64,000 nt of DNA from an uncultured Candidatus Saccharibacteria bacterium (GTDB lineage: Bacteria; Patescibacteriota; Saccharimonadia; Saccharimonadales; JAGQNJ01), in the NCBI GenBank assembly GCA_965231045.1, contig OZ246406.1:514208-578207 (forward strand). The letters are read 5' to 3'. Numbering within the stretch: the stretch's first letter is position 1; every line of letters begins with the position of its first letter. Both the position numbers and the translations under genes were made by a program. Below, piece by piece: positions 1,547 through 53,329 of this stretch. The notes under the pieces are model-generated. The model was not told the DNA's origin. It did no database searches and saw only the letters and a list, made by a program, of their open reading frames with translations.

Positions 1547-1638
1547 AACTTAACTATATCAAAATTGGAACCTGGTCATGTTAAGTAGTCTTTTACCCAT
1601 TTTGTGAGAGGATTCACGAAATAGAAAGGAGATATCAA

Positions 1639-1695
1639 AATGAGCTTGGTGAATTTTTCTGTTACTTGATCGCAGAAAAATTCACCAAGCTCATT
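1639..1695. repeat. Perfect 23-bp inverted repeat (hairpin with 11-nt loop) just downstream of tRNA-His
   Basis: 1639-1661 AATGAGCTTGGTGAATTTTTCTG is the exact reverse complement of 1673-1695 CAGAAAAATTCACCAAGCTCATT. On the minus strand it follows the tRNA-His 3' end and is followed by TTTGATATC. Confidence 0.85.
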
Positions 1696-1709
1696 GTACG
1701 ATATCGACG

Positions 1710-1787
1710 TGGGGCGAGCGATGGGACTTGAACCCACTACCTTCGGAACCACAACCCGACGCTCTAACCAGGTGAGCTACACTCGCC
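1710..1787 (-). tRNA. tRNA-His (anticodon GTG) with genome-encoded G-1 and CCA
   Basis: Reverse complement folds as G(-1) GCGAGTG TA GCTC..GAGC TCGGG TTGTGGT TCCGA AGGTA GTGGG TTCAAGT CCCAT CGCTCGC C CCA. The extra 5' G opposite discriminator C is the His identity feature. Confidence 0.9.
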
Positions 1788-1814
1788 ACAACTGTCTATT
1801 CTTTTTGAGAATAC

Positions 1815-1830
1815 AACAGGGGTGATTATA
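1815..1830 (-). promoter_or_regulatory. Putative tRNA-His promoter: -10 TATAAT followed by NN-CCCCTGTT
   Basis: The minus strand reads TTGTTA-17 nt-TATAAT-CA-CCCCTGTTG about 30 nt upstream of the tRNA 5' end. The same TATAAT/GATAAT-NN-CCCCTGTT arrangement recurs upstream of tRNA-Pro and tRNA-Lys. Confidence 0.4.
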
Positions 1831-1988
1831 CTTTAGATTATCAAAATTAACAACAAATTAATGTTTTAGGAAATCAATGCCAACAATAGCAATCACCACA
1901 GCTCCCATTACTTTCAGGAAATCTTTGGTCAGTTTATTCTTTTTCTCGGGCTGAGGCGCTTTCTCGCTCACACCTTAATTATAGCGAA

Positions 1989-2210
1989 CTATTCCCCACC
2001 TTTTTGAATGTAAGATTTCACAAATTCTTCAGCGTTTTCTTCCAGTACTTCATCAACCTCATCCAAAAGATCATCTAACTGACCTTTTATGGCCTCACCG
2101 ACAGCTTTAACACGATCAGCACGTTGGGCATCTTGCTCGACAATTGCCTGATCCACCATTGCTTCAGTTTCTTGTGGAGATGGTTTTTGTACACGTTCTT
2201 GTCCTGGCAT
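1989..2210 (-). CDS. pup: Prokaryotic ubiquitin-like protein Pup (C-terminal GGE form)
   Basis: 73 aa, acidic and disordered-looking. The C-terminal half QLDDLLDEVDEVLEENAEEFVKSYIQKGGE closely matches the Pup signature (..DDLLDEID.VLE.NAE.FV..YVQKGG[QE]). Strong SD TAAGGAGGACAT directly upstream of the ATG. Confidence 0.85.
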   Translation of the reverse strand: MPGQERVQKPSPQETEAMVDQAIVEQDAQRADRVKAVGEAIKGQLDDLLDEVDEVLEENAEEFVKSYIQKGGE

Positions 2211-2271
2211 ATGTCCTCCTTATTATATGGATGATAATACTCGTCGAGTTTTGGTTTGGATATTGTAAATT

Positions 2272-3549
2272 CTACTTAAACGGATTGGCTAGAGTTGTAT
2301 GTGGTACTATTTCGGCAATGCGCAGTAGTTCATTATATTTTGCCAGTCGCTCACTTCTAGAAAACGAACCGGTCTTGATTTGCCCACTATTTAAGCCAAC
2401 TGCTAGGTGGGCTATTGTATTATCCTCTGTTTCACCTGAACGATGAGAAACAATTGTTCGCCATCCGGCCTTCTGTGCCGTAACTACGGCTTCGATAGTT
2501 TCGCTTAGTGTCCCTATCTGATTTGGTTTTATCAAAATTGCATTACACGCCTTTTGCTCGATCGCTTTGTTCAATAAATGTGTGTTGGTAACCAGTAAGT
2601 CATCGCCAACCAGCTGAATTTTATGGCCTAGTTTTTGGTTAAGTTCCTGCCAGCCTGCCCAATCATCCTCTGCCAAACCATCTTCGATTGAAACTATCGG
2701 GAAGTCAGCACAAAGCTCACTGTACCAATCAATCAACTCACTTGCCGAGTACTTTTTATTTTCAACGGCAAAGTTATAAACTTCCCCATTTTTTAGTTCT
2801 GATGCGGCAACGTCGAGCGCAAAACTAATGTCATCACCAAGCTTATAACCAGCAACTTGTATTGCATCGGAAATTAATTCCAGAGCTTCTTTGGTACCAC
2901 CCTTGAGATTGGGCGCATAACCGCCTTCGTCCCCAACTGTGGTTGCATAACCATGTTTGTCCAATACTTTGTGCAAAGCGTGAAAAGTTTCGCTACACAT
3001 CTGGAGAGCCGTATCAATTGTTTCAGCGCCTTTTGGAATTATCATAAACTCTTGAATGTCCGTTGAGTGCGCGGCATGAGCTCCACCGTTCAATATGTTG
3101 CACATGGGCATGGGTAAAGAAATTTCATCATTGTGACTCAATCCAGCGATGTAGCGAAATAATGGTTGCTGTTTGTGTGCCGCCATGGCTTTGGCTACAG
3201 CCAGTGAAACGCCAAGAACTGCATTCGCGCCAAGGTTACTTTTATTTTCGGTTCCATCTAAGGCTATAAGATGTTTATCAAGCATGGCTTGATTTTCGGC
3301 GGGATAACCAACTAAGGCTGAAGAAATCTGTTTGTTGACATGATCAACAGCTTGTTGCACACCTTTACCTTCAAAATATTTTCCACCGTCGCGCAATTCT
3401 AAGGCTTCTTTGCTACCGGTTGACGCACCTGAGGGAACAGCGGCACGCCCCATACTGCCATCTTCTAAATAAGCATCTACTTCAAGAGTTGGAAAACCTC
3501 GTGAATCATAAATTTGGCGAGCTTTTATTTTTACGATTTTCATAAGCAT
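2272..3549 (-). CDS. eno: Enolase (phosphopyruvate hydratase)
   Basis: 425 aa, full-length match to the enolase pattern (KIKARQIYDSRGFPTLEVD.., ..SHRSGETED..IAHLAVG..GQIKTGS..RSERLAKYN). The start could also be the second ATG at 3543. Confidence 0.97.
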   Translation of the reverse strand: MLMKIVKIKARQIYDSRGFPTLEVDAYLEDGSMGRAAVPSGASTGSKEALELRDGGKYFEGKGVQQAVDHVNKQISSALVGYPAENQAMLDKHLIALDGTENKSNLGANAVLGVSLAVAKAMAAHKQQPLFRYIAGLSHNDEISLPMPMCNILNGGAHAAHSTDIQEFMIIPKGAETIDTALQMCSETFHALHKVLDKHGYATTVGDEGGYAPNLKGGTKEALELISDAIQVAGYKLGDDISFALDVAASELKNGEVYNFAVENKKYSASELIDWYSELCADFPIVSIEDGLAEDDWAGWQELNQKLGHKIQLVGDDLLVTNTHLLNKAIEQKACNAILIKPNQIGTLSETIEAVVTAQKAGWRTIVSHRSGETEDNTIAHLAVGLNSGQIKTGSFSRSERLAKYNELLRIAEIVPHTTLANPFK

Positions 3550-3575
3550 AAGGACTATCCTATAATATCACTTAA

Positions 3576-5238
3576 TATGGCCCAAATTACTTTCTATGAT
3601 GTGAGCCAAATTGATCGTCAGCAACTTGAAGCCTTGCTCAGAGATCACCCTGAGCACAGTACTCGATACGTTGTCGAATCAATTTCGGACCAAAACATTA
3701 ATCCTGACGCAGAGGTTATCAGTGTGTTTGTAACCAGCAGCGTCAACGATGCGCTTATGGCCAAAATGCCAAATCTGAAACTTATCGCCTGTCGCTCGAC
3801 TGGGTTTAATACAATTGATCTTGATGCCGCCAAAGCACGTAATATTAAAGTTGTAAATGTCCCGACTTACGGCGAAAATACAGTTGCTGAATACGCCTTT
3901 ACATTAATTCTAGCCCTGACCCGTAAACTTTTTGATACAAAATCAGCCGTTAATTCTTCAAGAATTGACCCTAGTGAATTAACTGGTATGGACTTGAGTG
4001 GAAAAACCATTGGCATAGTAGGTATGGGACACATCGGAGCTCACATGGCCAAAATCGCCAAGGGTTTTGATATGAACGTTATCGCCTACGATCCAAAACA
4101 AAATATCGAATTAGCGAAAGAGGTTGGGTTTACCTATAAATCGCTCGATGAACTTATACGCAGTAGTGATATAGTTTCGATCCATGTTCCATACATGCCT
4201 GCAACACATCATCTTATTAATGACACCCTGCTTAGGAGTGCGAAACGTGGTCAGGTGTTAATCAACACGGCTCGTGGTGAGATCATCGATACTAAAGCTT
4301 TAGTCCAAGCTTTACAGTCAAAAACAATTGCAGCCGCTGGGCTCGATGTCATTGAGGGCGAAAAACTTTTGAATATTAATGAAGAATTACTATTGCTCAG
4401 ACGCGATAAAATTCCTTTTGAAATGCTAGAGGAAAGCATGGAGATAAACATACTTAAAACCATGTCCAATGTAATAATAACGCCACATAACGCCTACAAC
4501 ACCAGTGAAGCAATTAAACGAATTAACCGTACAACTGTTGATAATATTATTGCTTTTCTTGATGACAAACCAACCAACGAAGTTAAACCTGACGCCAACG
4601 TCACTCCAGGAAAATTGTTTTTAATTCGCCATGGGGAGTCAGAGTGGAATGCACTAGGAAAGTGGACTGGCACAACTGACGTTCACTTAACTGAAAAAGG
4701 GTTCCGTGAAGCTGCAATGTTCGGGCAAAAACTACAGAATGAAAAAATTGATTTCGCTTTCACTTCAGAGCAAATTAGAGCCCTTGAAACACTTGAGGGC
4801 ATTATGGATGCCTCTCAACAATTTGATATACCTTTTGAGCGAACTAGTGCTTTTAACGAAAGAGATTACGGCGATTACACTGGAAAGAACAAATGGGAGA
4901 TGAAAGAAATTTTGGGTGAAGATGCTTTTAATCACCTCCGTCGTGATTGGGACTACCCGGTGCCAGGTGGTGAAACACTAAAGCAAGTCTTTGAACGTGC
5001 TGTACCGTTTTATAAGGACAAAGTAATGCCCTTGATTAACTATGGCAAAAACGTGCTGATAGTATCACACGGCAACTCAATGCGCGCACTCATGAAGTAC
5101 ATCGAGAAGATTGATGATAAGGAAATTTCAAATCTTGAAATGCCGTTTGGTAACATTATTATGTACCAAGTTGATAAGGATGGCTACGCTACCAAAAAAG
5201 CAATTCGCACTATAGACACTACGCCACCCAAAGCCTAA
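3576..5238 (+). CDS. Fusion protein: D-isomer-specific 2-hydroxyacid dehydrogenase (N-terminal) plus 2,3-bisphosphoglycerate-dependent phosphoglycerate mutase-type histidine phosphatase (C-terminal)
   Basis: N-terminal part has the NAD fold GIVGMGHIGAHMA and the catalytic-type NTARGE / DVIEGE / TPHNAY motifs. C-terminal part begins LFLIRHGESEWN and carries SHGNSMRAL. The ORF-track start at 3514 overlaps eno, so the ATG at 3576 (MAQITFYD) is preferred. Confidence 0.85.
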
Positions 5239-8583: not shown

Positions 8584-11010
8584 CTAGTGTTCGTTTAAGA
8601 TGCGCTGTATGTCGGGTGCATCAAATTGTATTGTTGAGCCAGGTGGCACATTGCCAGCCAGCATACGCTGAGCAACTAGATTTTCAACTGCTCGTTGAAC
8701 AACACGCCTTAGTGGCCGGGCACCAAGACGAGGATCGTAGCCTGTTTGGGCTAACAGCTGCTTTGCTGCAGGCGTAAGCGATACAACGACCTTTTGGGCC
8801 GACAGTCGCTTGTTTAGTGAATTCATCAACAGATCAACAACTTGCATAAGTTCATCTGTGGTAAGTGGCCTAAATAGTATTATTTCATCAAAACGGTTTA
8901 AGAATTCTGGGCGGAATGTATTTGAATCAATTAGCTCATTAACAAACGCTTCTTCAAATTGCTCAAGTTGCTCACCCTTCTGAATGTGGGCACGAATGCG
9001 ATCCGCACCAGCGTTACTTGTCGCGATAATAATCGCATCGCGGAAACTAACCGGCTTGTTCTGGGCATCACGCAACATTCCTTCGTCGAGCATTTGCAGA
9101 AGGAGGTTCAAAACATTTGGATGGGCCTTTTCGATTTCATCCAAGAGAACAACGCTAAAAGGCTGTTTGGCGATTTGTGCACACAAACTATATGGATCAG
9201 TACCGCCAGTAGCCAACAAACGCGTTGTGTCATTGGGCTGAGAAAATTCATTGAGGTCAATCCGAACCATTCGTTCTTCACCACCAAAATAAACCGCGGC
9301 CAAAGATTTAGATAGCTCTGTCTTACCTACACCTGTTGGACCAAGGAATAAGAAAGTTCCGATGGGCTTATTCTCGTTGCGCACACCTGCACGTGCACGA
9401 CGCAGGGCATCGCTAACAAGTTTAACCGCTCGAGTCTGGTTGATCATTCTTTGGTGAATTCGATTCTCTAGTGATAGCAAGACGTCGCGCTCTTCTTGGG
9501 TATCAGCACTTTGAACTTTTACATCAAAAGTCTTTTCAACTGCCTCTTTGACCGAACGGCTACTGATGAATACTTTTTGTTCAGGAAAACCTGAGGCCGC
9601 TTCTAGTAACTTAATAGCTTTACCAGGAAAGGCTTGTTCGTGTATGAAACGGTCGGCAAGTTTGTAGGCCTCTTTTAATGTTTGGTGCATATAAACAACA
9701 TGGTGTTGAGCCTCGAGTAAAATAATCTGGTCTTCCATTATTCGAACCGTGTCGTGTAGATCGAGCGGCTTAACAATTACGCGATTCATCATTTGAGCCA
9801 GCCCAGGATTATTTTGACTGAGTCGCACCCATTCTTGATCGTTTAGCGAAAGGATAATCCTAAGTGCACCGCCCTCGATAACCGGCAACAACAAGTTTGA
9901 TAAATCTACGGCTCCCGTTCCTTCGCGCAAGAAAAGTTGTGCTTCGTCCAAAAATAGAATGACATTTTTGGCGGCAATGGCTTCATTAAACAAATGGATC
10001 AATAGTTCTTCGAGTTGTCCCCTGCCCTTGGCATTGGCAATTAAGTTAGCGGCATCGAGCTCAATAACCTGATGATACCTAAGATCTGCGGGAACGCTTT
10101 TTGGATTCTCTAACAGTCGCTGGGTCAGCGTATGTACAATCGTAGTTTTACCAACCCCAACTTCACCAACCAAAACCGCATTGCGTCTACCTGGCTGAGC
10201 CAGTAAATGAAAAACTTGATCAATAACTTGGTCATGTGCCTGAACCGAGCGGCGAAGTAATCCACCATTCTCAATGTTTTCAGTTATATTAAATCCAACG
10301 CTGTTTAGAAGTGGTGCCCAGCCAAAGGCCAAATCGCGTCCAATTCCACCGTAGCTTCGGCGTTGTTGATGATATTCGATAACTTTATTTATATGAACAA
10401 ACCAAGCTACTCCTGCAAGAATGTCTTCGCCATCGATTTGAAGTGGAGCAAGTACAGCGTCATAATTTGGTATCGCATATATAAGAGCGGCCATTGTAAT
10501 TCCGCTGTCAATTTCTGTAACTTTCAAGCTATCAGCCAAAAAGATGGCATTATGCCATATCTTAACTGTTGAGCGTTGATCATCGTTGGAAAGCTGTTGT
10601 ATAAAGTTTGCGCTAACCCCAAAACGGCTGGCATAAAAATACCCGCCTCGTTGTTTGCTCATAATCTTGGCGATATCTTTTGGCGACATATTTGGCTTAA
10701 GCAAGGCTAGTATGTGGCGGCTGATGACCTGTGAGGCATCTGTAACATTTGTCATCGGTTGAGTAGCTGGCAAGTGTTTTAGCTCTCCGTTGTACCAGAT
10801 CAACATAACAGCCAGTGGTCCAACCAAAACCAACAACAAATGAGCAACTATGACCCCTTGGAACATGGCAAACCAACCCCATGCTACGAGCAGAGTAATA
10901 ATGATCACCCCGAAGCCTATTCTCAGGGCGCGGTTATCAAATGGCGCCCCAAAGCGAGCTTTTTTAGCACGGGAAGAATTAAGATTACAAACGAGTTCTT
11001 GTTCGCTCAT
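8584..11010 (-). CDS. Membrane-anchored double-AAA+ Clp/Hsp100-family ATPase (ClpB/ClpC-like, no obvious ClpP-docking loop)
   Basis: Two Walker A sites (GEVGVGKTTIV and GPTGVGKTELSK), Walker B ILFLDEAQLF and VVLLDEIEKAH, and a sensor GARPLRR. The N-terminus carries two hydrophobic helices (IGFGVIIITLLVAWGWFAMF, VIVAHLLLVLVGPLAVMLIW) ahead of Clp-N-like repeats. No IGF/VGF tripeptide was seen after SNAG. Confidence 0.85.
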   Translation of the reverse strand: MSEQELVCNLNSSRAKKARFGAPFDNRALRIGFGVIIITLLVAWGWFAMFQGVIVAHLLLVLVGPLAVMLIWYNGELKHLPATQPMTNVTDASQVISRHILALLKPNMSPKDIAKIMSKQRGGYFYASRFGVSANFIQQLSNDDQRSTVKIWHNAIFLADSLKVTEIDSGITMAALIYAIPNYDAVLAPLQIDGEDILAGVAWFVHINKVIEYHQQRRSYGGIGRDLAFGWAPLLNSVGFNITENIENGGLLRRSVQAHDQVIDQVFHLLAQPGRRNAVLVGEVGVGKTTIVHTLTQRLLENPKSVPADLRYHQVIELDAANLIANAKGRGQLEELLIHLFNEAIAAKNVILFLDEAQLFLREGTGAVDLSNLLLPVIEGGALRIILSLNDQEWVRLSQNNPGLAQMMNRVIVKPLDLHDTVRIMEDQIILLEAQHHVVYMHQTLKEAYKLADRFIHEQAFPGKAIKLLEAASGFPEQKVFISSRSVKEAVEKTFDVKVQSADTQEERDVLLSLENRIHQRMINQTRAVKLVSDALRRARAGVRNENKPIGTFLFLGPTGVGKTELSKSLAAVYFGGEERMVRIDLNEFSQPNDTTRLLATGGTDPYSLCAQIAKQPFSVVLLDEIEKAHPNVLNLLLQMLDEGMLRDAQNKPVSFRDAIIIATSNAGADRIRAHIQKGEQLEQFEEAFVNELIDSNTFRPEFLNRFDEIILFRPLTTDELMQVVDLLMNSLNKRLSAQKVVVSLTPAAKQLLAQTGYDPRLGARPLRRVVQRAVENLVAQRMLAGNVPPGSTIQFDAPDIQRILNEH

Positions 11011-14041: not shown

Positions 14042-15895
14042 ATGATTTTGGGGAATAAAAAATTACCGCTGGTTATTGGGATAGGGCTACTTACCTTCTC
14101 CGGGGTTTTATTATTCTCCCCGCACAAAGCCTTGGCCGCAACATTTACTGTGAATTCTACCGGCGACGCTAGTGATGCCGTTGCAGGTGATGGTAACTGT
14201 GATGATGGTGGCGGCAACTGTACATTACGCGCTGCAATTCAGGAGACCAATGCTCTTGTTGGTGCTGATACAATCAATTTCAATATTGCTGGAAGTGGCC
14301 TGCACACAATTAGTCCAGCAACAGTATATCCAGACATAGGAGACTCATTGACTATTGATGGTTCGACCCAATCTGGAGCAAGTTGTGGCACGCTTGTACC
14401 AACAAACCTACCGGCAACTTCAAACACACCTCATAACTTACTAGTAGAAATAGACCTTAGTAATTTAGTGGGCGGGAATGGGTTTACCTTAAATGGCAAT
14501 GCAGGCAATACAACAATTCGTGGACTAATTTTAAACGGCATAGTGAATGGTGGCGCAATAGTTAATAATGGTGCGCCAGTCACAACTATAGAGTGTAATT
14601 ATTTTGGCACCAATGCATCAGGCACTACGGCTGTACCAAATAATTATTCCGCAATAATCTTTAACTCAATAAATGTTACCACTATTCAAAATAATCTTAT
14701 TTCAGGATCAGGCTCTGCCATCAATGGAAGCGGTTCAAATCTTACTATTAGTAATAACCTTATAGGTACAAACGCTGCCGGCACAAGTTCTCTTGGCGCT
14801 AATGCAAGTGGAATATCTGGTACTTTTAGCACCGCTCTTATACAACATAATGTTGTCGTTGGTAGTGTAAATGATGGCCTGTTCATAGTCGGTGACAATT
14901 TTGATATCAAAGGTAATTACATTGGTGCTGGTCTATCTGGTAATGCGCTTGGTAATGGTGGCTCAGGTATAACCGTTTACTCTAGCAGTAACTTCAGGAT
15001 AGGCGGCACGACTGACGCTGATAGAAACATCATATCTGCAAATACCGGGGATGGTATACACATTTACTCCAACTGTGGTGGAGGGGCTGTTTACTTGTCG
15101 ATGATATTTGGTAATTATGTTGGGACAAAGACCGACGGGACAGTTGCCAATGGCTATGGTAATCATCAAGCAGGTATAGAAGTTAATGAATACCAAGGTT
15201 CATGCGGGTCTGTTTACCAGCATCAAATTGGTGGCGATAATGCCGGTGAGGCAAATATTATTGCTGGGAATGATCAACAAGGAGTATTAATTCATCAAGA
15301 TAATAATCACGATGTATTTAGCATTGCGGTTTTACACAATAAAATATTTGGAAATGGCCAGATCGGAATTGATCTTGCTAATGATGCAGGTGGTGATGGA
15401 GTTGCAACCGATGATTTAGGGCCAAACCCACTTAATGGTCTGCACATTACATATCCAACCGCCAACAGCAATAACTACTTAAACCGACCGACTGTAAACT
15501 CTTCGGTCTATAGCTCTGGAAAGCTTACAGTAAACTATAACTTCATAGCAAACTTAGTTGATGATAGCGGTGATGGTTTCAGTATGCTAGCAAAAGATCT
15601 TGTCGGGTACCGTTTAGATTTTTATATAAATGATAATGCAACTGATGGTGCCTTTCCAGGTTATGCCCAGCAGCAAACCTATTTAGGAAGCTTCATTATT
15701 GACGGAAATGCAACAAATGCAACTCATACATTTGATTTGCCATCATACAAGAATGGTCAAACGATTACCGCAACTGCAACTCTGCTTTGGACAAAAACAC
15801 CAGGTGACGCAACAATACCGCAAGGTTGTAACGGTACATCTGAGAGAACTGGGAATAGTCCACCATATAGTTATCTTAATAGTTGCCCGAATTAA
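14042..15895 (+). CDS. Secreted right-handed parallel beta-helix repeat protein with an N-terminal CSLREA-type motif
   Basis: Signal peptide (..LLFSPHKALA|AT), motif GNCTLRAAIQETNA, and many G/N/I-rich pseudo-repeats (NNLISGSGSAINGSGSNLTISNNLIGTN..). No C-terminal anchor. Confidence 0.7.
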   Translation: MILGNKKLPLVIGIGLLTFSGVLLFSPHKALAATFTVNSTGDASDAVAGDGNCDDGGGNCTLRAAIQETNALVGADTINFNIAGSGLHTISPATVYPDIGDSLTIDGSTQSGASCGTLVPTNLPATSNTPHNLLVEIDLSNLVGGNGFTLNGNAGNTTIRGLILNGIVNGGAIVNNGAPVTTIECNYFGTNASGTTAVPNNYSAIIFNSINVTTIQNNLISGSGSAINGSGSNLTISNNLIGTNAAGTSSLGANASGISGTFSTALIQHNVVVGSVNDGLFIVGDNFDIKGNYIGAGLSGNALGNGGSGITVYSSSNFRIGGTTDADRNIISANTGDGIHIYSNCGGGAVYLSMIFGNYVGTKTDGTVANGYGNHQAGIEVNEYQGSCGSVYQHQIGGDNAGEANIIAGNDQQGVLIHQDNNHDVFSIAVLHNKIFGNGQIGIDLANDAGGDGVATDDLGPNPLNGLHITYPTANSNNYLNRPTVNSSVYSSGKLTVNYNFIANLVDDSGDGFSMLAKDLVGYRLDFYINDNATDGAFPGYAQQQTYLGSFIIDGNATNATHTFDLPSYKNGQTITATATLLWTKTPGDATIPQGCNGTSERTGNSPPYSYLNSCPN

Positions 15896-15913: not shown

Positions 15914-16207
15914 ATGTATAGATTGAAACAATTCATCAGATTATCAGTCACTCCTATGTTGATAATTGCCATCCTCCTACTAATTGGAGGTGGTACTGTA
16001 GCCGCCGCAGAGATAACACCGGATCCGACTTCATACAGTTATGGTTCAACGTCTGAAATTTCACCATCATCTACAATAACTACTAACCCTAGTTCATTGG
16101 CAAGTACGGGCGACCCAGCAAATATTATAAAGATTGCTGCGGTAGTTCTAATATTAACTGGCGTTGGTTTTGGGGCTCGAGCTATCCTGAAAAAACGTAA
16201 GGCCTAG
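15914..16207 (+). CDS. Minimal sortase-substrate-like protein (signal peptide, about 40-aa S/T-rich stalk, LASTG motif, TM helix, KKRKA tail)
   Basis: The C-terminus SSLASTGDPANIIKIAAVVLILTGVGFGARAILKKRKA has the tripartite cell-wall sorting signal layout, with LASTG in place of LPXTG. Confidence 0.6.
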   Translation: MYRLKQFIRLSVTPMLIIAILLLIGGGTVAAAEITPDPTSYSYGSTSEISPSSTITTNPSSLASTGDPANIIKIAAVVLILTGVGFGARAILKKRKA

Positions 16208-17079
16208 GCTTTTTTTGCCTGAACTTTGTGCCGAATATTTGGAACTATTAGTAACACTCCTCCGACTGCTAGTACTAACACGGCAACTACAATTAGTATT
16301 TGAGTCTGGTTATTAAAAGTACCGATAAAGGCATTGTAGAGATTGCTAACAACCGTTCGGGCATCCGGGCTTGGTACTTTTGATAGCACTGGCGGTCGGA
16401 ACAATGGACCTAATAGTAGCGCTAGCAGCCCAGCCCCAAGTAAAGCGCCCGCCTGTATCATCATTATGACCTTGTAGTTCTTGTGCCATTTTACGTATGG
16501 GTAAGCTACCAGAACAATTGCACCAATAAGCGCGATTGGGCCAAGCCATAAGAACACAATTCCATACTTATAAAAATCAGGAATATTATCTTTATTAACT
16601 AGTACAATTTCTGAAGGAATATTATCGGGATTAATTTTTACTTGTCGCTGTGTGCTCACCACATCAACAACTTTAGTAATAAATTCTTTTGGTCCTTGTA
16701 GATCAATAGTCAGTGACTGTGGATCGCTTGATGTGAACGAAACTTGAAGTTTGCTAATTGCCTTTCCTAGTACATTCTCAACTTGATCGGTGCCCAAAAC
16801 ACCACTTACTACTTTGGTAATGGTATTGCCGGCAATATTCTTAGCCGTAGGATAATCTGCTAAAAGCTTATCGGTAATTTCTGAGGCAATGGCATCGCGG
16901 CTACTTTCTGACGTCAATGATGTTGTTGCGACACTGCTAAAGTTGTTTGTATCAAAAATATAGTTGTTAACCCAAAAGGCCGAATTAGCAATTACAAAAA
17001 GTATGGCGGCAAAAATTGCCGAGACAATTGTTGGCCTTAGCCATGTGTGTTTAGTTTGAGATTTAACTTGTGTAGGCAT
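16204..17079 (-). CDS. Membrane protein, unknown function
   Basis: 291 aa with an N-terminal TM helix, a soluble middle part and C-terminal TM helices. 4-nt overlap with the convergent upstream gene end. Confidence 0.55.
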   Translation of the reverse strand: MPTQVKSQTKHTWLRPTIVSAIFAAILFVIANSAFWVNNYIFDTNNFSSVATTSLTSESSRDAIASEITDKLLADYPTAKNIAGNTITKVVSGVLGTDQVENVLGKAISKLQVSFTSSDPQSLTIDLQGPKEFITKVVDVVSTQRQVKINPDNIPSEIVLVNKDNIPDFYKYGIVFLWLGPIALIGAIVLVAYPYVKWHKNYKVIMMIQAGALLGAGLLALLLGPLFRPPVLSKVPSPDARTVVSNLYNAFIGTFNNQTQILIVVAVLVLAVGGVLLIVPNIRHKVQAKKA

Positions 17080-20263: not shown

Positions 20264-20444
20264 AGAAGTCGTACTATTTATCAAATACCCATACACGGCT
20301 GGAATTATTGCCACAATATGGCTAGGTAGTGCTATCCTTTTGGCAATAAATCATAACATTCCATTTGTTAGAGTCATGCTAATTAATATGTTCTGTAGTG
20401 TACTCATTGCCGCTATCGGTTTTAGCGGAAAACACGAAGTTTAG
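20256..20444 (+). CDS. Small membrane protein
   Basis: 62 aa with two hydrophobic helices. It overlaps the kinase stop by 8 nt. Confidence 0.4.
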   Translation: MLKEVVLFIKYPYTAGIIATIWLGSAILLAINHNIPFVRVMLINMFCSVLIAAIGFSGKHEV

Positions 20445-20992
20445 AGAATTTCGCTTTTTATTATTTCTAGCAACTCCGGAAACTGATTAAATCTAGGGTC
20501 GAGTCCATAGCTAAAATGTCCCATGCCATGAAATATTTTTAGGCTAGCATTCAACTCATCGGCAATCCACTTTGCCCCATCAAGTGGACAATATGGATCA
20601 TCATCAGAATGAACCACTACAAATTTGTCAGCTTTACTCTTTATTTTTGCGTAGTCAAACTCCTTATTAACACCTTTTAGTGATTTCCAGCCCAAGTCCC
20701 CGCGAAATGTTCCAACCAAAACACCAGCTTTTATACGAACATTTTCTGGCAATACTTCCATAAGTGCCATGACTTCAACTGACCCAGAGGAGTGTCCAAT
20801 CAAAAGATTGTCGGAAAAATCCCAACCACTAGCTAGCAAAAATTCATTGTATTTATCGATGTGTGGTTCTTCTGCCCCAGGAAGATCTGGCACCCAAACT
20901 TCGTGCCCAAGTTTTTCAAGTTCTGACTTTAGCCAAGGAAACCAGTTTTGAGTATGATCTGCACTAGTACCGTGCAGAATAACTACTTTCAT
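20441..20992 (-). CDS. Alpha/beta hydrolase, YdeN/RBBP9-like serine hydrolase
   Basis: 183 aa with the nucleophile elbow GHSSG, a conserved HSDDDP and a GMGHF tail typical of this small esterase family. Confidence 0.75.
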   Translation of the reverse strand: MKVVILHGTSADHTQNWFPWLKSELEKLGHEVWVPDLPGAEEPHIDKYNEFLLASGWDFSDNLLIGHSSGSVEVMALMEVLPENVRIKAGVLVGTFRGDLGWKSLKGVNKEFDYAKIKSKADKFVVVHSDDDPYCPLDGAKWIADELNASLKIFHGMGHFSYGLDPRFNQFPELLEIIKSEIL

Positions 20993-20996
20993 GTTG

Positions 20997-21641
20997 TTAT
21001 TCTACCAGCTTTAAAAATTCATCCCAACTATTGGCTACCATTGTTGGTTTGGTATTTAGTAGATCCTGTTTGTGATAATACTCCGATCTTTCGTCCATCC
21101 AGAACAAACATGAGTCCACTCCTGCATTATGGGCCGCTTGTATATCACCAATACCATCACCAATCATAATACATTCACTTCTATCGGCACCTAATTCTTC
21201 CATGGCTTTAAACAGCGGTTCAGGATGAGGTTTGTGCTCTTTGACATCTTCGTAGCAAATCACTGCATCAAAACCGCCGATAAGATCGTGGGCTTCTAGC
21301 ATATTTCCGACAACTTCTCTAAATGCTCTTGTTACTAGCGCCGATTTACACCCATTTTCATGAAGCACTTTTAGCATATCCAAAACGCCAGGAAATAGCG
21401 GAAGGTTTTTGATATATTTTGGTGCAATTTTTTCACCATGTTTTCTCATGCTAAGCCACTTATCTTCAGAAATATCGACATAATTTCGCAAATATACCCA
21501 GTGATTCATGCATCTCAACTGTTGGGCTTTAGTGAGTTTTACTTCGCCATATCGAAGAATTTCTTCGAATACCTCAAACCATGCAGGCGTTGAGTCCAGT
21601 AGTGTTCCATCCCAGTCAAAAAGAAATGTATTGTATTTCAT
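20997..21641 (-). CDS. HAD-superfamily phosphatase
   Basis: Motif I FDWDGTLLDS and motif IV GDGIGDIQAA. Confidence 0.8.
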   Translation of the reverse strand: MKYNTFLFDWDGTLLDSTPAWFEVFEEILRYGEVKLTKAQQLRCMNHWVYLRNYVDISEDKWLSMRKHGEKIAPKYIKNLPLFPGVLDMLKVLHENGCKSALVTRAFREVVGNMLEAHDLIGGFDAVICYEDVKEHKPHPEPLFKAMEELGADRSECIMIGDGIGDIQAAHNAGVDSCLFWMDERSEYYHKQDLLNTKPTMVANSWDEFLKLVE

Positions 21642-22168
21642 AATTCGAATTCATAAATTTCAGTATTTTTGAAGCCCTCAAACTTGTACATGTCACCATG
21701 ATGCATATCTTTATCAACAATTCTTATCATACGACCTGTTGAGCCGTGACTAACTAATACTACGTTATTTGCATCTAGTTTTTTTAGCCACTCGAAGCCA
21801 TCAGCTACACGTTTTTTCATATGTTCCGCAGACTCCATACCTTCCTCATTACCAGCCAGAACTGCCGCTCGATATTCGGAATGTGGCCGTCCTGAATATT
21901 TACCAAACTCGCGTTCAATAAACGCTTCGTTTTGGAGAATACTGTTCGGATTAATACCAAGTTCTTTAGCAATAATTTGAGCAGTTTCTACGGTGCGGCC
22001 AAGTGGAGAACAAACTATTAAATCAATCGACTTATCCTTAAGATCCTTACCAACTTTTCGGGCTTGCTCACGACCATTCTCGGTCAACTGTGTTATGTGC
22101 TCGCCACCCGAAGCAATACCGGCAACATTCGCTTCACTTTCACCATGTCTTACGTAGTAAACTTTCAT
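21638..22168 (-). CDS. Histidine phosphatase (phosphoglycerate-mutase-like) family protein
   Basis: YYVRHGESEAN catalytic motif and LVSHGSTGR. 4-nt overlaps on both sides. Confidence 0.8.
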   Translation of the reverse strand: MKVYYVRHGESEANVAGIASGGEHITQLTENGREQARKVGKDLKDKSIDLIVCSPLGRTVETAQIIAKELGINPNSILQNEAFIEREFGKYSGRPHSEYRAAVLAGNEEGMESAEHMKKRVADGFEWLKKLDANNVVLVSHGSTGRMIRIVDKDMHHGDMYKFEGFKNTEIYEFEL

Positions 22169-22722
22169 ATCTCAAACTCCCATCCTGGCATCCATTCATA
22201 GCCGGATTGTATCTTTTCCTCTATAGGGATTCCCCGTATATGGAAGTCCAGACCGTAGTGAACAGCATGTCCGCCAATAATAACTACTCTATTGAAACTC
22301 GATTTAGACAAGTCATCAATAAAACTTCCTATGCGATCAACGGCATGATCATAACTCTCGCCTTGATAGAAGCCACCCAGAGGGCTTTCTCCAGCAGGAA
22401 ATGCGCTATGTATACGGTTGGGTTTTTCTGCCTCTACCTTATCTTTGGCCCAACCAGTCATAGCACCATAATCACATTCTCTTAAGCGATGATCGATGAA
22501 TAGTGTTCTCGGGGTGATGCCCACAAAAGCCCTGGTAGCAGTTTGTATTCCTCGTTGTAGATCGGGCACAAATACGGCATCCGTATCCGGGTAATCATGT
22601 CTGCGTCCAATGCGCTCAGCCTGCTTTCGACCGTTTCTTGTGAGTGACGGGTCGCTCCAGCCTGAAGCTATATTTCTCCTACTGTGATGTGTTTCACCAT
22701 GTGTTTCAAAAAAAATTTGCAT
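22165..22722 (-). CDS. Divergent histidine-phosphatase-like protein (RHG motif replaced by THG)
   Basis: The N-terminus FFETHGETHHSRRNIASGW aligns to the L.RHGET..N motif but has Thr for the first Arg. GGHAVH lies near the C-terminus. Confidence 0.6.
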   Translation of the reverse strand: MQIFFETHGETHHSRRNIASGWSDPSLTRNGRKQAERIGRRHDYPDTDAVFVPDLQRGIQTATRAFVGITPRTLFIDHRLRECDYGAMTGWAKDKVEAEKPNRIHSAFPAGESPLGGFYQGESYDHAVDRIGSFIDDLSKSSFNRVVIIGGHAVHYGLDFHIRGIPIEEKIQSGYEWMPGWEFEI

Positions 22723-36675: not shown

Positions 36676-37098
36676 ATGAGCAAGTTAATTAGAAACGAAA
36701 CTGGCTTTAGTATTGTTGAGCTTTTAATCACGCTTATTATTATTGCTGTGGCTTTTGGTGCATTTATGGTTACATTTACCAGCATTCAAGGTATTAACAA
36801 GAAATCTATAGATATAAACAATGCAACTGAGTCTGCTTACACAAAGCTTCAGGAATACGAAAATAAAAGCTTCTCCACCCTACCTACCACATCACCCTCA
36901 GGAACACTTGTGCAAGTTGAAGATTTTAGCAGCAGTGTACCTGCAGGTCTTGAAAAACCATATACAGCACTCGTATATGTCAATACTCAGTCACCAACCC
37001 TCAAGCAAGTTGTGGTAAGTATTAAGTTTGGTAGTGGATCAGGCCAACGTGTTATTGAGTTTGGGACTTTAATACAAAAGAATGGGCTTGGACGATGA
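36676..37098 (+). CDS. Minor pilin / pseudopilin
   Basis: The N-terminus NETGFSIVELLITLIIIAVAFG has the prepilin motif. Confidence 0.7.
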   Translation: MSKLIRNETGFSIVELLITLIIIAVAFGAFMVTFTSIQGINKKSIDINNATESAYTKLQEYENKSFSTLPTTSPSGTLVQVEDFSSSVPAGLEKPYTALVYVNTQSPTLKQVVVSIKFGSGSGQRVIEFGTLIQKNGLGR

Positions 37099-37811
37099 AA
37101 GATCAACATGGCTTTACACTTGTCGAAGTTCTAATCATGGCTCCGATTATGATTCTAACAATTGTGTTTTTGATGAGTTTCTTGTTTTCTCAATATGGGG
37201 ACCTCACCAAGCAAGGTGCTCAAATTAACTTACAGACAGAGGCTCAAGTTATTACCTTCAGTATGGAAGATGATGTATTTTTCTCAAATGCATTTGTCCA
37301 AGATCTAAATGCCGGTCTTATTGATACCTACCAGCCATCTGGTGGCTGGAAGTACAATACCACACCACAAACCTTAATTATCTCTGAACCTGCAATAACA
37401 AAAAATCGACGAGATCCAGATAGACAGCCAGTTTTTATTAATACAGTGGGATGCGATACAAGTGTTATTGAAGATAATTCTCCCTTGTATAACAACATAA
37501 TTTACTTTGTAAGTGGCACAAACTTGTACAAAAGAGTAGTAAGTGCGCCGGCAACAATGTCAACTTGTGGAACCAGCTTTATGAAACAAACATGTCCTCA
37601 GGCACATGCCAGCACTAGTTGCCCGGCTGATAAATTACTCACTGATAAGCTTGATACATTCGCTGTTACTTACTTAGATACAAATAACAATGCTGTAAGT
37701 GATCCTGAACAAGCTGAACGGCTTAAGGTTGTATTGACGCTCAAAGATAGGGCATACGCTGAGGATATACACAGCACTTCAACAATAACCCTAAGAAAGC
37801 TTAACCAATGA
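37095..37811 (+). CDS. Minor pilin / pseudopilin
   Basis: The N-terminus KDQHGFTLVEVLIMAPIMIL has the prepilin motif. 4-nt overlaps with both neighbours. Confidence 0.7.
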   Translation: MKDQHGFTLVEVLIMAPIMILTIVFLMSFLFSQYGDLTKQGAQINLQTEAQVITFSMEDDVFFSNAFVQDLNAGLIDTYQPSGGWKYNTTPQTLIISEPAITKNRRDPDRQPVFINTVGCDTSVIEDNSPLYNNIIYFVSGTNLYKRVVSAPATMSTCGTSFMKQTCPQAHASTSCPADKLLTDKLDTFAVTYLDTNNNAVSDPEQAERLKVVLTLKDRAYAEDIHSTSTITLRKLNQ

Positions 37812-40839: not shown

Positions 40840-41426
40840 TAAATTTACTACCTCCCGAAGAAAAATCAAACATATTATACGCAAGACGTAATACTGTATT
40901 GCGTCATTGGGTTTTCGCATTATTAGCTGTACTGGCTGGGTCTATTGTATTTTTAGCCGCGGGCCAGGTATATATTGCGCAAACCACCTCCCACCTAAAC
41001 AAGCAGGTAACTGCTCAGCGTGAATCATTGAAAGAACAAAAACTTGATGAAACTCAGAAGCGACTATCTGACCTGTCCAACAACCTTAAGCTCATTATTC
41101 AAGTCCTTTCTAGAGAAGTCTTATTTTCTAAACTACTACGTCAAGTTGGTGCAGTCATGCCTCAAGGATCCGTTCTATCTTCTATTGAGTTAAGCAAAGT
41201 TGAAGGTGGGATCGATTTAAGTGCAGAGGCTGCTGATTATAATACTGCAACACAAATCCAGGTTAACCTTCAAGATCCCAGTAATAAGTTGTTTGATAAA
41301 GTTGATATAATTCAGGTTAGTTGTGCGCAAGCAAAAGGTGACCCCTATCCTTGTAAGGTAACCTTACGAGCCTTGTTTGCAAAGAACAATCCTTTCCTAT
41401 TCATTAATAATGGAGCTAAGCAATGA
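40836..41426 (+). CDS. pilN: PilN-like bitopic protein
   Basis: MINLLPPE start motif, a single TM helix and a coiled-coil segment. Its position after pilM, with a 4-nt overlap, supports the call. Confidence 0.7.
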   Translation: MINLLPPEEKSNILYARRNTVLRHWVFALLAVLAGSIVFLAAGQVYIAQTTSHLNKQVTAQRESLKEQKLDETQKRLSDLSNNLKLIIQVLSREVLFSKLLRQVGAVMPQGSVLSSIELSKVEGGIDLSAEAADYNTATQIQVNLQDPSNKLFDKVDIIQVSCAQAKGDPYPCKVTLRALFAKNNPFLFINNGAKQ

Positions 41427-42079
41427 GTCCAAAACGCGCATATTACATGATGATTGGGCTTGTAGTGTTGCTCAGCACAGCTGTAATTGGCAGCCTTATT
41501 GGTGGAAACATATTCTTAGAAAATCAAGCAAAAAAGCTAAACTCACTTAAGGTTGAGGATAAGGTGTTGGAGGAGCAACAGAATGCACTTAATCAAGCAA
41601 ATAAAGATATCGTGAAATATGCTGAGCTTGAAAAGGATGCCAAATCAGTAGTACCACAGGACAAGGATCAAGCAAAGGCTGTGTTGGAAATAATTCAAAT
41701 TGCAAAAGCTAGTAATATATCCATAAAAAGCATAACGTTTCCTAGTTCAAACCTTGGGGCCAAAGCTGCCCCAACAACAAACTCTAGTGATTCTAGCGAA
41801 AAAAGTGGCTCAAGCAGTACCCCGGTAACACCGCCAATTAGTCAAGCAAAACCTGTTGATGGTATTAAAGGTGTATACAGTTTAGAAATGAATATTGTGC
41901 CTGAATCCGATAATGGTAACGTGATAAGCTACTATCAGTTCCTAGACTTTTTGCAAAGGCTTGAAAACAACCGTCGAACTGCCCAGGTAACTCAAATTAG
42001 AATATCTCCTAAAACTAGCGATAAACAAAGCCCCATTATCACTTTCACATTAACACTTAATATATTTGTAAAGCCGTAA
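41423..42079 (+). CDS. pilO: PilO-like bitopic protein
   Basis: Single TM helix, a coiled coil, then an alpha/beta domain. Assigned by position after pilN and by architecture. Confidence 0.55.
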   Translation: MSPKRAYYMMIGLVVLLSTAVIGSLIGGNIFLENQAKKLNSLKVEDKVLEEQQNALNQANKDIVKYAELEKDAKSVVPQDKDQAKAVLEIIQIAKASNISIKSITFPSSNLGAKAAPTTNSSDSSEKSGSSSTPVTPPISQAKPVDGIKGVYSLEMNIVPESDNGNVISYYQFLDFLQRLENNRRTAQVTQIRISPKTSDKQSPIITFTLTLNIFVKP

Positions 42080-50704: not shown

Positions 50705-51232
50705 TTAAAAATAGAGCTGTTGACCTTCTGATAGACCAAGTTTTTGAGCTCTGTCAGCATTGATCTCCAAAACATACTGAGCTGGACTACTAGGACAAAA
50801 AGATGTCGGGTATGATGATGGTGATACATTGGGCTCAACATGCACAATCTTTTTTTCTTTACTAAGCCAAACTATATCTAGGTTAAACTTCATATCTTTC
50901 ATCCAAAAACATCGGTCACCTTCGCTTTCAAATACAAACATCATACCTTCGTTACTAGGCAATGAATTACGGTTTCCCAACCCCTTTTCCTGCGAGGCTT
51001 GGTCAAGTGCAAAGTCTAGCCTAACTATGCATTCACTTGAGGTTAACTTTCTCAAACACGGTTTATGCTCTTGTAGTTTTTGTTGCCCTAAAATAACCAA
51101 CCAAAATAAAGTGGTTAGTAGTACAACCAATATAATTCCAACCACAATTCTGTTAGTGAGGAGAGGTTTGTTGGGCCGCTTAGGCGCCAACTCGATCTTT
51201 TCGGTGTTGTTTTTTGGCGTTTTGTTCGACAT
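50705..51232 (-). CDS. DUF192-family protein with an N-terminal membrane anchor
   Basis: ..GLGNRNSLPSNEGMMFVFE..FWMKDMKFNLDIVWL..YVLEINA.. matches the DUF192 pattern (from memory). The annotated start overlaps the rimK 3' end by 53 nt. Confidence 0.65.
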   Translation of the reverse strand: MSNKTPKNNTEKIELAPKRPNKPLLTNRIVVGIILVVLLTTLFWLVILGQQKLQEHKPCLRKLTSSECIVRLDFALDQASQEKGLGNRNSLPSNEGMMFVFESEGDRCFWMKDMKFNLDIVWLSKEKKIVHVEPNVSPSSYPTSFCPSSPAQYVLEINADRAQKLGLSEGQQLYF

Positions 51233-52082
51233 ACTCGATTATTTTTTCTGCTACATTTCGGCCAGTAACTTTTTCAATTCCAAAACCGGGGCTAGCATTA
51301 ACCTCTAGCACTAGTGGCCCACGATCTGAACGCATCATATCAACACCACAGATTGGCAGTCCCATAGCCTTGGCTGCTTTTTGAGCCGTCTTACGTTCCT
51401 CGTCAGTTAATTTAATCGAGCTGCCTTCACCACCTTGGTGTAAGTTTGAGCGAAAGTCATCGTCCAAGCTCTGACGCTTCATACTAGCTACAACTTTACC
51501 CCCAACAACAAAGGCACGGATGTCAGTACCGGCCGATTCCTTAACAAATTCTTGTACTAAAAAGTTCACGCCCTCAACATAGAAGGCCTGCATTACAGCC
51601 TCAGCCGCTTTTTGAGTTTCTGCCAACACGACACCTTTACCGTGCGTTCCTCGGGCAACCTTAATAATTAGCGGAACCCCGCCAGCCTGAGTTATAACGT
51701 CATCCAGATCAGCAGTTTCACGAGCAAACACGGTTTTTGGAATACCAACACCGGCTCTTGCTAGTAATTGTGTAGCGCGCAACTTGTCTCGTGTTCTGTT
51801 AATTGCCAGCGAACTAGCCGTTGAGTAGACACCTTGCATTTCAAATTGTCGAACTACAGAGCTACCATATTTGGTCAAACTTGTAGCAATACGAGGAATT
51901 ATTACATCAACATCACTAAGGTTTTCCCCTTTGTAACGAACTACTGGCGTACTGCTCTCTAGTGTTACGTAGCACTTGGCGTAGTTAATAACCCGGACAT
52001 TATGGCCACGTTCGGTTGCCACCTCTTTAAGGCGTCTTGTTGAGTAGTTGGCTGATCCCTTTGATAGAATTACGATATTCAT
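51180..52082 (-). CDS. rimK: RimK-family ATP-grasp alpha-L-glutamate ligase
   Basis: 300 aa. MNIVILS..NYSTRRL..HNVRVIN.. N-terminus, ATP-grasp core (..RGTHGKGVVL.., ..QEFVKES.GTDIRAFVVGGKVV.., ..GVDMM....GPLVLEVNASPG). Confidence 0.88.
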   Translation of the reverse strand: MNIVILSKGSANYSTRRLKEVATERGHNVRVINYAKCYVTLESSTPVVRYKGENLSDVDVIIPRIATSLTKYGSSVVRQFEMQGVYSTASSLAINRTRDKLRATQLLARAGVGIPKTVFARETADLDDVITQAGGVPLIIKVARGTHGKGVVLAETQKAAEAVMQAFYVEGVNFLVQEFVKESAGTDIRAFVVGGKVVASMKRQSLDDDFRSNLHQGGEGSSIKLTDEERKTAQKAAKAMGLPICGVDMMRSDRGPLVLEVNASPGFGIEKVTGRNVAEKIIEYVEQNAKKQHRKDRVGA

Positions 52083-52084
52083 GG

Positions 52085-53329
52085 TTAAATCCTCTGTAAC
52101 TTATTATTGAATGTCTTGTAAAGAAGCTGTAGTGATATCTTAGGATTATTTCCTTGCACATAGATTATAACGTCCTCTGGTCGTGCAAGGGAAGCAGCTT
52201 TTTTCAGTGCCGCCTCTTCCTCGATAATATGAAAAACATCTGACTTTGTCTCCACCTTAAGCATATCTGCAAATAACTTAGAAACATAGCCTACTTTTTC
52301 TTGGCGGAATGGATTATGCTTATCACTTGGCAAGCGGGTTTTGCCATCGATCTTGTCATAAATTACGAACGTGTCGAAGTCATTGGCAATGGCTTTAGCC
52401 GTCTCGGTAACTAAATCATCTGTGCGAGTTGGTGAAAGCCTTAAAACACCTATTATTTTTCCTTCTGGTGACAGGTGTTTGGCAAGTTTTGTTATTTCTT
52501 TCAATGATTCTTTTTCGTGGGCAAAATCAAATATTACATATCTGCCATCTTCTGTCTTAAAGGTAACTAACCGCCCACTTTCTTCTGTTGGTTCATAGGT
52601 CTTTAGGCTGTCTATTGCTGACTCTGGTAATTTGTCGTCAAAGTAGCCAATTAATGCTCCGATCACCAAAAGAACATTGTATGCACTTGGCTCAAAGCCT
52701 GGTTTGTACATTTTATAATCGGCAACTTGGCCTAGGTCATATTTTGTCTTTGAACCGTTACAAACGATCTCACCTGCTTCGTTTACATATAGATTAATAT
52801 CACCTGTTTTAACTTCATTTAATGAGCAGGCAATTTTGGTTACCATCTTTTTTGATGGCAAACGCTTTAGCTGAGCAGTAATAAGTGAATCGTCAGCATT
52901 ATAGACAGCATAACCTTCGTTCCCTATCCGAGAAAAAATGAAACTCTTGGCACTAGCAATATCTTCTTTAGTTTGGAGTGTCGCGTCTGCCCCTTTATGA
53001 TCTTCAAAAACATTCGTGAATACTCCGACTTTGTGGGTACTATAACCTAAACCACATGCCTTTGAACAAAATAGATTAGCTTCTAAGACCGCGCAGCGTT
53101 TGCCAGCCTTTTTAGCCAAAAGTGTAATGAACCTGCCTGGTGCATTGGCTGGGGCTAAGCCCCAAATAAGCTTGCTATCATCATGAGTTAATTCATGCTG
53201 ACCGTTTACCCACGCGCCCTCTGTATCAACGCGTAATAAATAATCAACGGTGGGCATTAAAACATGGTCTAACGCCCTCACTACCGAGGTCTTACCCTTT
53301 GTACCAGTTACGCTAAGTATAGGCAGCAT
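52085..53329 (-). CDS. Mur-ligase-family protein resembling the M domain of cyanophycin synthetase
   Basis: It starts directly at the P-loop (SVTGTKGKTS). It aligns by eye to CphA M-domain blocks (VLEAN..GLG, GVFTNVFEDH, YAVYNADD, SGRL, VIFDFAHEKESL, and an R.D-rich segment before FDTFVIYDK). Confidence 0.75.
   Translation of the reverse strand: MLPILSVTGTKGKTSVVRALDHVLMPTVDYLLRVDTEGAWVNGQHELTHDDSKLIWGLAPANAPGRFITLLAKKAGKRCAVLEANLFCSKACGLGYSTHKVGVFTNVFEDHKGADATLQTKEDIASAKSFIFSRIGNEGYAVYNADDSLITAQLKRLPSKKMVTKIACSLNEVKTGDINLYVNEAGEIVCNGSKTKYDLGQVADYKMYKPGFEPSAYNVLLVIGALIGYFDDKLPESAIDSLKTYEPTEESGRLVTFKTEDGRYVIFDFAHEKESLKEITKLAKHLSPEGKIIGVLRLSPTRTDDLVTETAKAIANDFDTFVIYDKIDGKTRLPSDKHNPFRQEKVGYVSKLFADMLKVETKSDVFHIIEEEAALKKAASLARPEDVIIYVQGNNPKISLQLLYKTFNNKLQRI

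Follow-up and report, generated by a model that had tools for sequence, protein, structure and literature searches.

An actinobacterial-type pup gene without nearby partner genes in a small genome of non-actinobacterial gene content

[quoted passage not shown] The gene belongs to the Pup family, it is under purifying selection, its sequence is of the actinobacterial type (A-type), and no partner gene is found within about -6.7 to +62 kb of it. On balance we lean to the view that it encodes a functional PupE that was transferred anciently, and that its ligase is encoded elsewhere in the genome, as is common in comparable small genomes. The product itself belongs to a well-known family; what is unusual is the gene context and the host.

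The pup gene and its immediate surroundings comprise the following features.

1989..2210, minus strand: pup, ATG start, encoding a 73-aa PupE with the tail SYIQKGGE and an A-type (actinobacterial) C-terminal half
2215..2221, minus strand: Shine-Dalgarno sequence AAGGAGG, 4 nt upstream of the pup ATG, conserved in the variant L068
2211..2271, minus strand: eno-pup spacer, 61 nt, 87% identical in L068
2272..3549, minus strand: eno (enolase), the upstream same-strand neighbour of pup; Enolase_C 380.7 bits and Enolase_N 183.9 bits (Pfam)
1858..1971, minus strand: small ORF directly downstream of pup, 37 aa, GTG start, one hydrophobic helix: VSEKAPQPEKKNKLTKDFLKVMGAVVIAIVGIDFLKH
1710..1786, minus strand: tRNA-His (GTG), found by ARAGORN, Rfam 58.4 bits; the downstream boundary of pup
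1853..1825, minus strand: promoter-like site TTGTTA-17-TATAAT on the tRNA-His side, from a promoter scan
2291..2262, minus strand: weak promoter-like site TAGCCA-18-TACAAT, a 9/12 match that overlaps the end of eno

An earlier note on this DNA, made from the sequence by a model, had placed the gene between tRNA-His and eno behind a very strong Shine-Dalgarno sequence, and had read it as a Pup homolog to be checked by a profile search. The position and the ribosome-binding site are as described. The profile search of the open reading frame, MPGQERVQKPSPQETEAMVDQAIVEQDAQRADRVKAVGEAIKGQLDDLLDEVDEVLEENAEEFVKSYIQKGGE (73 aa; its C-terminal end was quoted in the note as EEFVKSYIQKGGE), gave 70.7 bits (E 2e-19; gathering score 27) against Pfam PF05639 and 61.5 bits (cutoff 41.45) against NCBIfam TIGR03687, pupylate_cterm. 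Pups have been described as proteins of 50-90 aa with a terminal G[EQ] signature (PMC2588565), for which the pattern [FY][VI]QKGG[QE] at the extreme C-terminus was used in practice; the window product has 73 aa and runs YIQKGGE into the stop codon. Residues 39-73 align without a gap to the M. tuberculosis Pup solved with Mpa (3M91, 3M9D, 7PX9) and likewise to the Pup chains solved with Dop/PafA (7OY3, 7OXY, 4BJR), and the conserved helical C-terminal segment for binding of Mpa and PafA/Dop is, by this alignment, present. Judged from its sequence, 1989..2210 on the minus strand encodes a clear Pup, and a chance match is impossible. Assignment to UBact is unnecessary because of the 70-bit Pfam Pup match and the 87% identity of the C-terminal part to actinobacterial Pups.

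Among 5.8 billion proteins, the close relatives of the window Pup are its own cluster and an 89% variant, and the next sequences stand at about 60% identity. A scan of one genome per species yielded at least 51 loci, almost all from Actinomycetota and mostly from Acidimicrobiia; the best matches among the loci listed have 58-59% identity over the full length and include Microthrixaceae. The tail SYIQKGGE is the commonest one in the best 120 matches (57/120). The earlier note read the GGE end correctly and gave it special weight; the latter does not hold, as GGE is the majority state among the closest relatives (88 of the best 120 matches end in GGE, as against 32 in GGQ), and the GGE end was set aside as a special feature. 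PupE forms are well documented (PMC3511204).

An HMM of 118 A-type Pups, from which the window sequence was left out, gives the window Pup 94.5 bits, whereas an S-type (Saccharibacteria-type) HMM built from only 3 sequences gives it 52.4 bits compared with 103-125 bits for its members, a comparison that is somewhat biased in that the 118 A-type Pups were picked for similarity to the window Pup. By these scores the window Pup does not belong to the S-type. The last 30 residues have a mean identity of 87% to the same 118 actinobacterial-type Pups. At the level of sequence, the C-terminal half is actinobacterial and Acidimicrobiia-like, and it is unlike that of the S-type Pups of small genomes.

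An assembly or binning artefact, in which an actinobacterial fragment has been joined to a foreign contig, would account for a Pup whose closest relatives, among the matches listed, are Actinomycetota. Such a reading is refuted by the order eno-pup-small ORF-tRNA-His, which recurs in 8 independent Logan assemblies and in L068. At least 9 contigs, assembled independently from different runs, encode the identical Pup protein, and in each case pup comes straight after eno. The Pup protein also maps to one NCBI contig of 840,197 bp, as do the enolase, DnaK, AAA+, PilB, RNase Y, and YebC of the window. The base composition argues the same way: pup has a GC of 0.43 and a GC3 of 0.26, no higher than the genes around it; this matches the host genome (window GC 0.41) and is unlike high-GC Actinomycetota. 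Because of the GC3 of 0.26 and the eno-pup junction in at least 9 independent assemblies, pup is neither a contaminant nor part of a chimera, and we give the artefact practically no credence.

A gene that stands alone without its usual operon partners could also be a remnant, decaying and without function, of a lateral transfer long ago. When the window is compared with L068, the 89%-identical variant, pup differs by 20 synonymous and 8 non-synonymous changes, which corresponds to a dN/dS of 0.076; the fragment of the adjacent eno compared in the same way has a dN/dS of 0.087. Purifying selection thus acts on pup as strongly as on the gene for a glycolytic enzyme, and since the two values are similar, pup is no relic. 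In addition, the strong Shine-Dalgarno sequence is intact and conserved, and at least 10 assemblies, as well as two further sequence variants, have the ORF unbroken. The remnant is effectively refuted by the selection test, its omega of 0.076 being as low as that of a housekeeping neighbour, and it is highly improbable.

The transfer of pup must be old because its codon composition is fully adapted. Recent horizontal transfer from a high-GC actinomycetote was considered and rejected, since pup exceeds the genome level in neither GC nor GC3. The window contains hrcA-grpE-dnaK and dnaJ on one strand, RNase Y, ComEC, and the type IV pilus genes PilB/PilC/PilM with a prepilin, together with many small hydrolases and few biosynthetic genes. 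Such a gene content is atypical of Actinomycetota. The host genome appears to be small and AT-rich, and its gene content argues against Actinomycetota; taken with the 840-kb contig and the GC of 41%, it points to a CPR/Patescibacteria organism, probably a Saccharibacteria-like one. Lateral acquisition had been offered before as one of several explanations; it gains support from the combination of an actinobacterial-type Pup with a non-actinobacterial genome content.

With regard to its expression, pup is probably co-transcribed with eno; a scan of 1600..3700, which includes the eno-pup spacer, found 0 terminator-like sites. The 37-aa ORF downstream differs from its counterpart in L068, in an alignment read by eye, by 7 synonymous changes and one I->L replacement. 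It is probably a real gene for a small membrane protein, and it is taken here as part of the context of pup only.

The short-read assemblies on the pup side (L001-L008 and L068) all end 248 nt past the pup stop, inside tRNA-His (at about 1741), and the longest contig on the left side, L069, starts near tRNA-His. An integrated island at tRNA-His was considered as the reason for this break and rejected, as the genes beyond the break are housekeeping genes (MurA-like, GlyA, MurB). The simpler explanation, and the probable one, is that metagenome graphs break at the conserved tRNA sequence.

The absence of PafA/Dop, Mpa/ARC, and 20S genes from the 64 kb, which had been noted at first reading, was borne out by two kinds of search. 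Pfam scans of all plausible window ORFs of at least 150 aa gave no Pup ligase/Dop, Mpa/ARC, or 20S subunit. Local HMMs made from fetched sequences were run with filters off against all six-frame stop-to-stop segments of at least 40 aa of the window, and these were blank as well: the best E value was 0.89 for the Pup ligase HMM (51 sequences; no PF03136-like sequence), 0.9 for PrcB (37 sequences), 0.48 for PrcA (28 sequences), and 0.68 for the N-terminal coiled-coil/OB region of Mpa, and the full Mpa/ARC HMM gave at most a weak P-loop similarity to RuvB.

The pup gene is about 2 kb from the left edge of the window, and the earlier note overlooked how little of that side is covered. The left side was therefore extended by about 4.7 kb via Logan contigs that carry the leftmost window gene. 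This extension encodes a MurA-like protein, GlyA, MurB, and an HTH protein, and it contains no ligase, Pup, Mpa, or 20S match, so that the partner-free span around pup reaches from about -6.7 to +62 kb (~69 kb). Neither in the window nor in the 4.7 kb further left does pup adjoin a PafA/Dop homologue, and the window lacks the canonical locus in which arc/mpa, dop, prcB, prcA, and pafA are clustered with pup. The adjacency of pup to PafA/Dop is a contextual regularity and no part of the sequence definition of the Pup family.

This regularity is strong in Actinomycetota. A ligase homologue adjoins pup in 49/51 of the loci fetched from the matches listed. In the usual layout, one ligase homologue is directly upstream of pup and another one 1.5-4 kb downstream, with PrcB/PrcA-like ORFs between the two and the ARC ATPase upstream. 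The adjacency of pup and ligase has been termed invariable (PMC2588565), and the gene order of the Pup locus rigidly conserved (PMC3511204). An unlinked A-type pup is unusual on account of the 49/51 linked loci among those listed and of this literature. In one Actinomycetota MAG (isolate SAR1), the Pup gene (L047:8638-8727) has about 9-10 kb free of ligase homologues to its left and to its right, so that a detached pup is found, if rarely, in Actinomycetota too (1-2 of the 51 listed loci).

Other genes of the window that deserve mention are listed here.

8584..11010, minus strand: AAA+ protein of the Clp/Hsp100 kind, made up of two AAA modules and ~250 aa that are specific to the lineage
3514-5238, plus strand: fusion protein of D-2-hydroxyacid dehydrogenase and histidine-phosphatase (phosphoglycerate-mutase-like) domains, divergent from eno
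20441-22722, minus strand: two further His_Phos_1 genes, a HAD phosphatase, and a serine hydrolase in tandem
51180-53329, minus strand: RimK-type ATP-grasp ligase of 300 aa, encoded immediately after a 414-aa Mur-ligase-like protein, apparently in the same operon
14042-15895 (plus), 16204-17079 (minus), 37095-39718 (plus), and 41423-42079 (plus): ORFs of 617, 291, 238, 636, and 218 aa with no Pfam match

The AAA+ protein had been called Clp-like and membrane-anchored, a description with which its two AAA modules and the strongly hydrophobic N-terminal residues 27-77, consistent with a membrane anchor, agree. It scores far below every equivalog cutoff (ClpB, 434 vs 1232 bits). An exhaustive search returned ~40 representative clusters with the full-length architecture at 37-49% identity, and the relatives examined are on contigs of <750 kb (at most 745 kb). 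The Pfam-blank ORFs at 37-42 kb, which are inside the type IV pilus cluster, may be lineage-specific pilus components.

The RimK-type and Mur-ligase-like proteins may form a module for peptide or poly-glutamate ligation. As both are ATP-dependent carboxylate-amine ligases and both are encoded in the window (51180..53329, minus strand), an enzyme other than PafA, such as this pair, might conjugate Pup. The pair is 49 kb away from pup, however, with no evidence of co-occurrence, and RimK family members carry the annotation of glutamate ligases whose target is ribosomal protein S6. Moreover, the C-terminal half of the window Pup appears to be kept in the exact form that binds PafA/Dop-type enzymes, and we regard conjugation by such a pair as very unlikely.

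How pup and its ligase are arranged in other small genomes bears directly on the question of a distant ligase. Nine distinct ligase contexts from Saccharibacteria and other small-genome MAGs were examined for pup over ±10 kb. The ligase-clade loci are the following.

L053: 5969-7624
L060: 9769-11476
L066: 7949-11494
L062: 10001-12830
also L064, L065, L067, L073, and L077

An adjacent pup is present in 3/9 of these loci (L053, L060/61, and L066), and all three Pups are GGQ-ended. In the remaining 6/9 there is no pup within ±10 kb, and one of the six has two tandem ligase paralogues. Because 6/9 loci are without an adjacent pup, unlinked arrangements of pup and ligase are common in the small-genome clade. 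No 20S subunits were found within the nine loci. The Candidatus Saccharibacteria MAG L053 encodes a 473-aa Pup_ligase protein (195.5 bits on PF03136) right behind its pup, the product of which ends in FRQKGGQ. The MAG L066 is one contig of 872,946 bp, on which ATPase, pup, and ligase form a trio; the ATPase is a bona fide proteasome-type one, with 584 bits on the equivalog model TIGR03689 (cutoff 505). The adjacent Pups end in GGQ, yet there is one ligase homologue nearby; could one enzyme perform both deamidation and ligation?

The small-genome ligases score about equally on the PafA and Dop equivalogs, at 78-172 bits (cutoffs 551 and 492), and neighbour-joining places them together in a clade of their own, separate from the Dop and PafA branches of Actinobacteria. 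Several of those recovered are named 'PafA2 family protein' by NCBI (Candidatus Saccharimonas / Saccharimonadales), so annotation pipelines already name such Saccharibacteria proteins. Saccharibacteria and small-genome lineages are absent from the phylum lists of PMC2588565 and PMC7947786, and a full-text literature search that paired pupylation terms with Saccharibacteria, Patescibacteria, or CPR brought up no paper on the subject. A tblastn comparison of the window ORFs with the Saccharibacteria loci revealed no shared orthologues, and the matches were at the level of paralogs only (24-43%).

The ligase of the window genome was sought in two ways. A single-sequence search with the L053 ligase gave 51 matches and a search with a 49-sequence ligase profile gave 70, all listed in both cases, and none of them is recorded on the window genome's 840,197-bp contig; the same assignment to that contig works for 6/6 well-defined window proteins. 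Both searches were word-indexed, and their reach is the small-genome ligase clade, with only 3 actinobacterial-type enzymes recovered of the thousands expected. Two ligase clusters were considered as a secondary contig of the same assembly and rejected, as they come from other samples and their loci have 46-48% GC. A ligase, and possibly an ARC ATPase as well, most likely has its gene at another place on the ~840-kb chromosome, away from pup, though this is unproven.

The alternative is that the genome encodes no Pup ligase at all and that pup is a true orphan, acting through the pupylation machinery of another cell or as a non-covalent ligand in its own cell. The partner-free span from -6.7 to +62 kb is what such an orphan would show, and so is a contig to which no small-genome-type ligase could be assigned. 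That an actinobacterial-type pup almost always adjoins the genes for its enzymes speaks for the orphan too, as does a Pup that resembles those of Actinomycetota and mismatches those of the small-genome ligase clade; the strong purifying selection implies some partner, which an orphan might find in another cell. Against this, an actinobacterial-type ligase may be encoded elsewhere in the genome, since it was the small-genome clade that the ligase searches reached. We know of no genome with Pup only that has been described as functional. An orphan Pup is the main rival reading, although we consider it unlikely. The suggestion in the earlier note that this lineage uses Pup in a different context may also apply.

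In a variant of this idea, Pup might be a substrate, decoy, or inhibitor of the PafA, Dop, or Mpa of a host, for example an actinobacterial host on which the bacterium lives as an epibiont. More specifically, the PupE of an episymbiont without a ligase gene could be a mimic that is conjugated by the host PafA or that competes for the host PafA/Dop/Mpa. However, pup has no secretion signal and no link to a delivery system, the epibiont lifestyle and the actinobacterial host are assumptions, and the best Actinomycetota Pups listed are just 58-61% identical overall, which does not point to the mimicry of any specific host. This specific form of the idea is decidedly unlikely.

If a functional PupE with a distant ligase is the right reading, as we favour, the following course of events is envisaged. 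A small-genome, non-actinobacterial lineage, probably CPR/Saccharibacteria-like, would have acquired pup laterally and long ago, and the gene would be translated from its strong ribosome-binding site. A PafA-type carboxylate-amine ligase, as known from the family, would use ATP to phosphorylate the gamma-carboxylate of the C-terminal Glu and then couple this group to the side chains of lysines in target proteins, and the terminal Glu would make prior deamidation unnecessary. The conserved helical C-terminal half would be, again by analogy with the family, the part that docks to the ligase, the depupylase, and an Mpa/ARC-type ATPase, and these partner enzymes would be encoded at a distance from pup on the same chromosome. 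The chemistry, the co-transcription with eno, the distal ligase, and the lineage are the parts of this scheme that we infer.

In the usual view, pupylation belongs to Actinobacteria and its genes form a rigidly conserved cluster. The window pup departs from this in two respects: an A-type Pup is kept under strong selection in a small, AT-rich, non-actinobacterial genome, and it is fully detached from its enzymes. Taken together with the small-genome ligase clade and the Mpa-Pup-ligase trio, it suggests that minimal, proteasome-free pupylation is wider and more modular than described. Should a ligase be present in the genome, the window holds an ordinary Pup with an unusual gene order, and should the genome have none, the role of a lone Pup is a real puzzle. 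If the mimicry of a host were true, it would be the first cross-organism ubiquitin-like effector among bacteria.

Compared with known systems, the closest counterpart is the PupE of Actinomycetota of the Acidimicrobiia type, encoded in an arc-dop-pup-prcB-prcA-pafA locus. It belongs to the same family by PF05639/TIGR03687 and has the same SYIQKGGE tail, and the N-terminus of the window Pup (MPGQERVQKP) resembles that of Acidimicrobiia (MPEREQVRKP), whereas its middle part is longer and lineage-specific. In gene arrangement the two differ, as Actinomycetota loci cluster the ligases, the proteasome subunits, and ARC with pup, and the window pup adjoins none of these. Pupylation genes have moved from Actinobacteria to Nitrospirae and other phyla, with Acidimicrobiales suggested as the source (PMC3511204, PMC7947786); in these transfers the whole locus moved and was kept together, whereas the window shows only pup.

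The small-genome module consists of a single 'PafA2 family' ligase with or without pup and with or without Mpa, and its single ligases recall the single-copy planctomycete homologues of PMC7947786. The window Pup and the small-genome Pup modules are alike in that they occur in small, AT-moderate genomes, have no 20S subunits nearby, and are often unlinked. They differ at the tail, the small-genome Pups ending in GGQ (GFRQKGGQ, AFVQRGGQ, GFKQTGGQ) and the window Pup in GGE. Finally, Corynebacterium has arc, dop, pup, and pafA without prcBA; the ATPase is retained and pup directly precedes pafA (PMC3511204). The window pup is unlike it in having no ligase or ARC nearby, but Corynebacterium is a precedent for Pup function without a 20S proteasome and a plausible functional model for small genomes.
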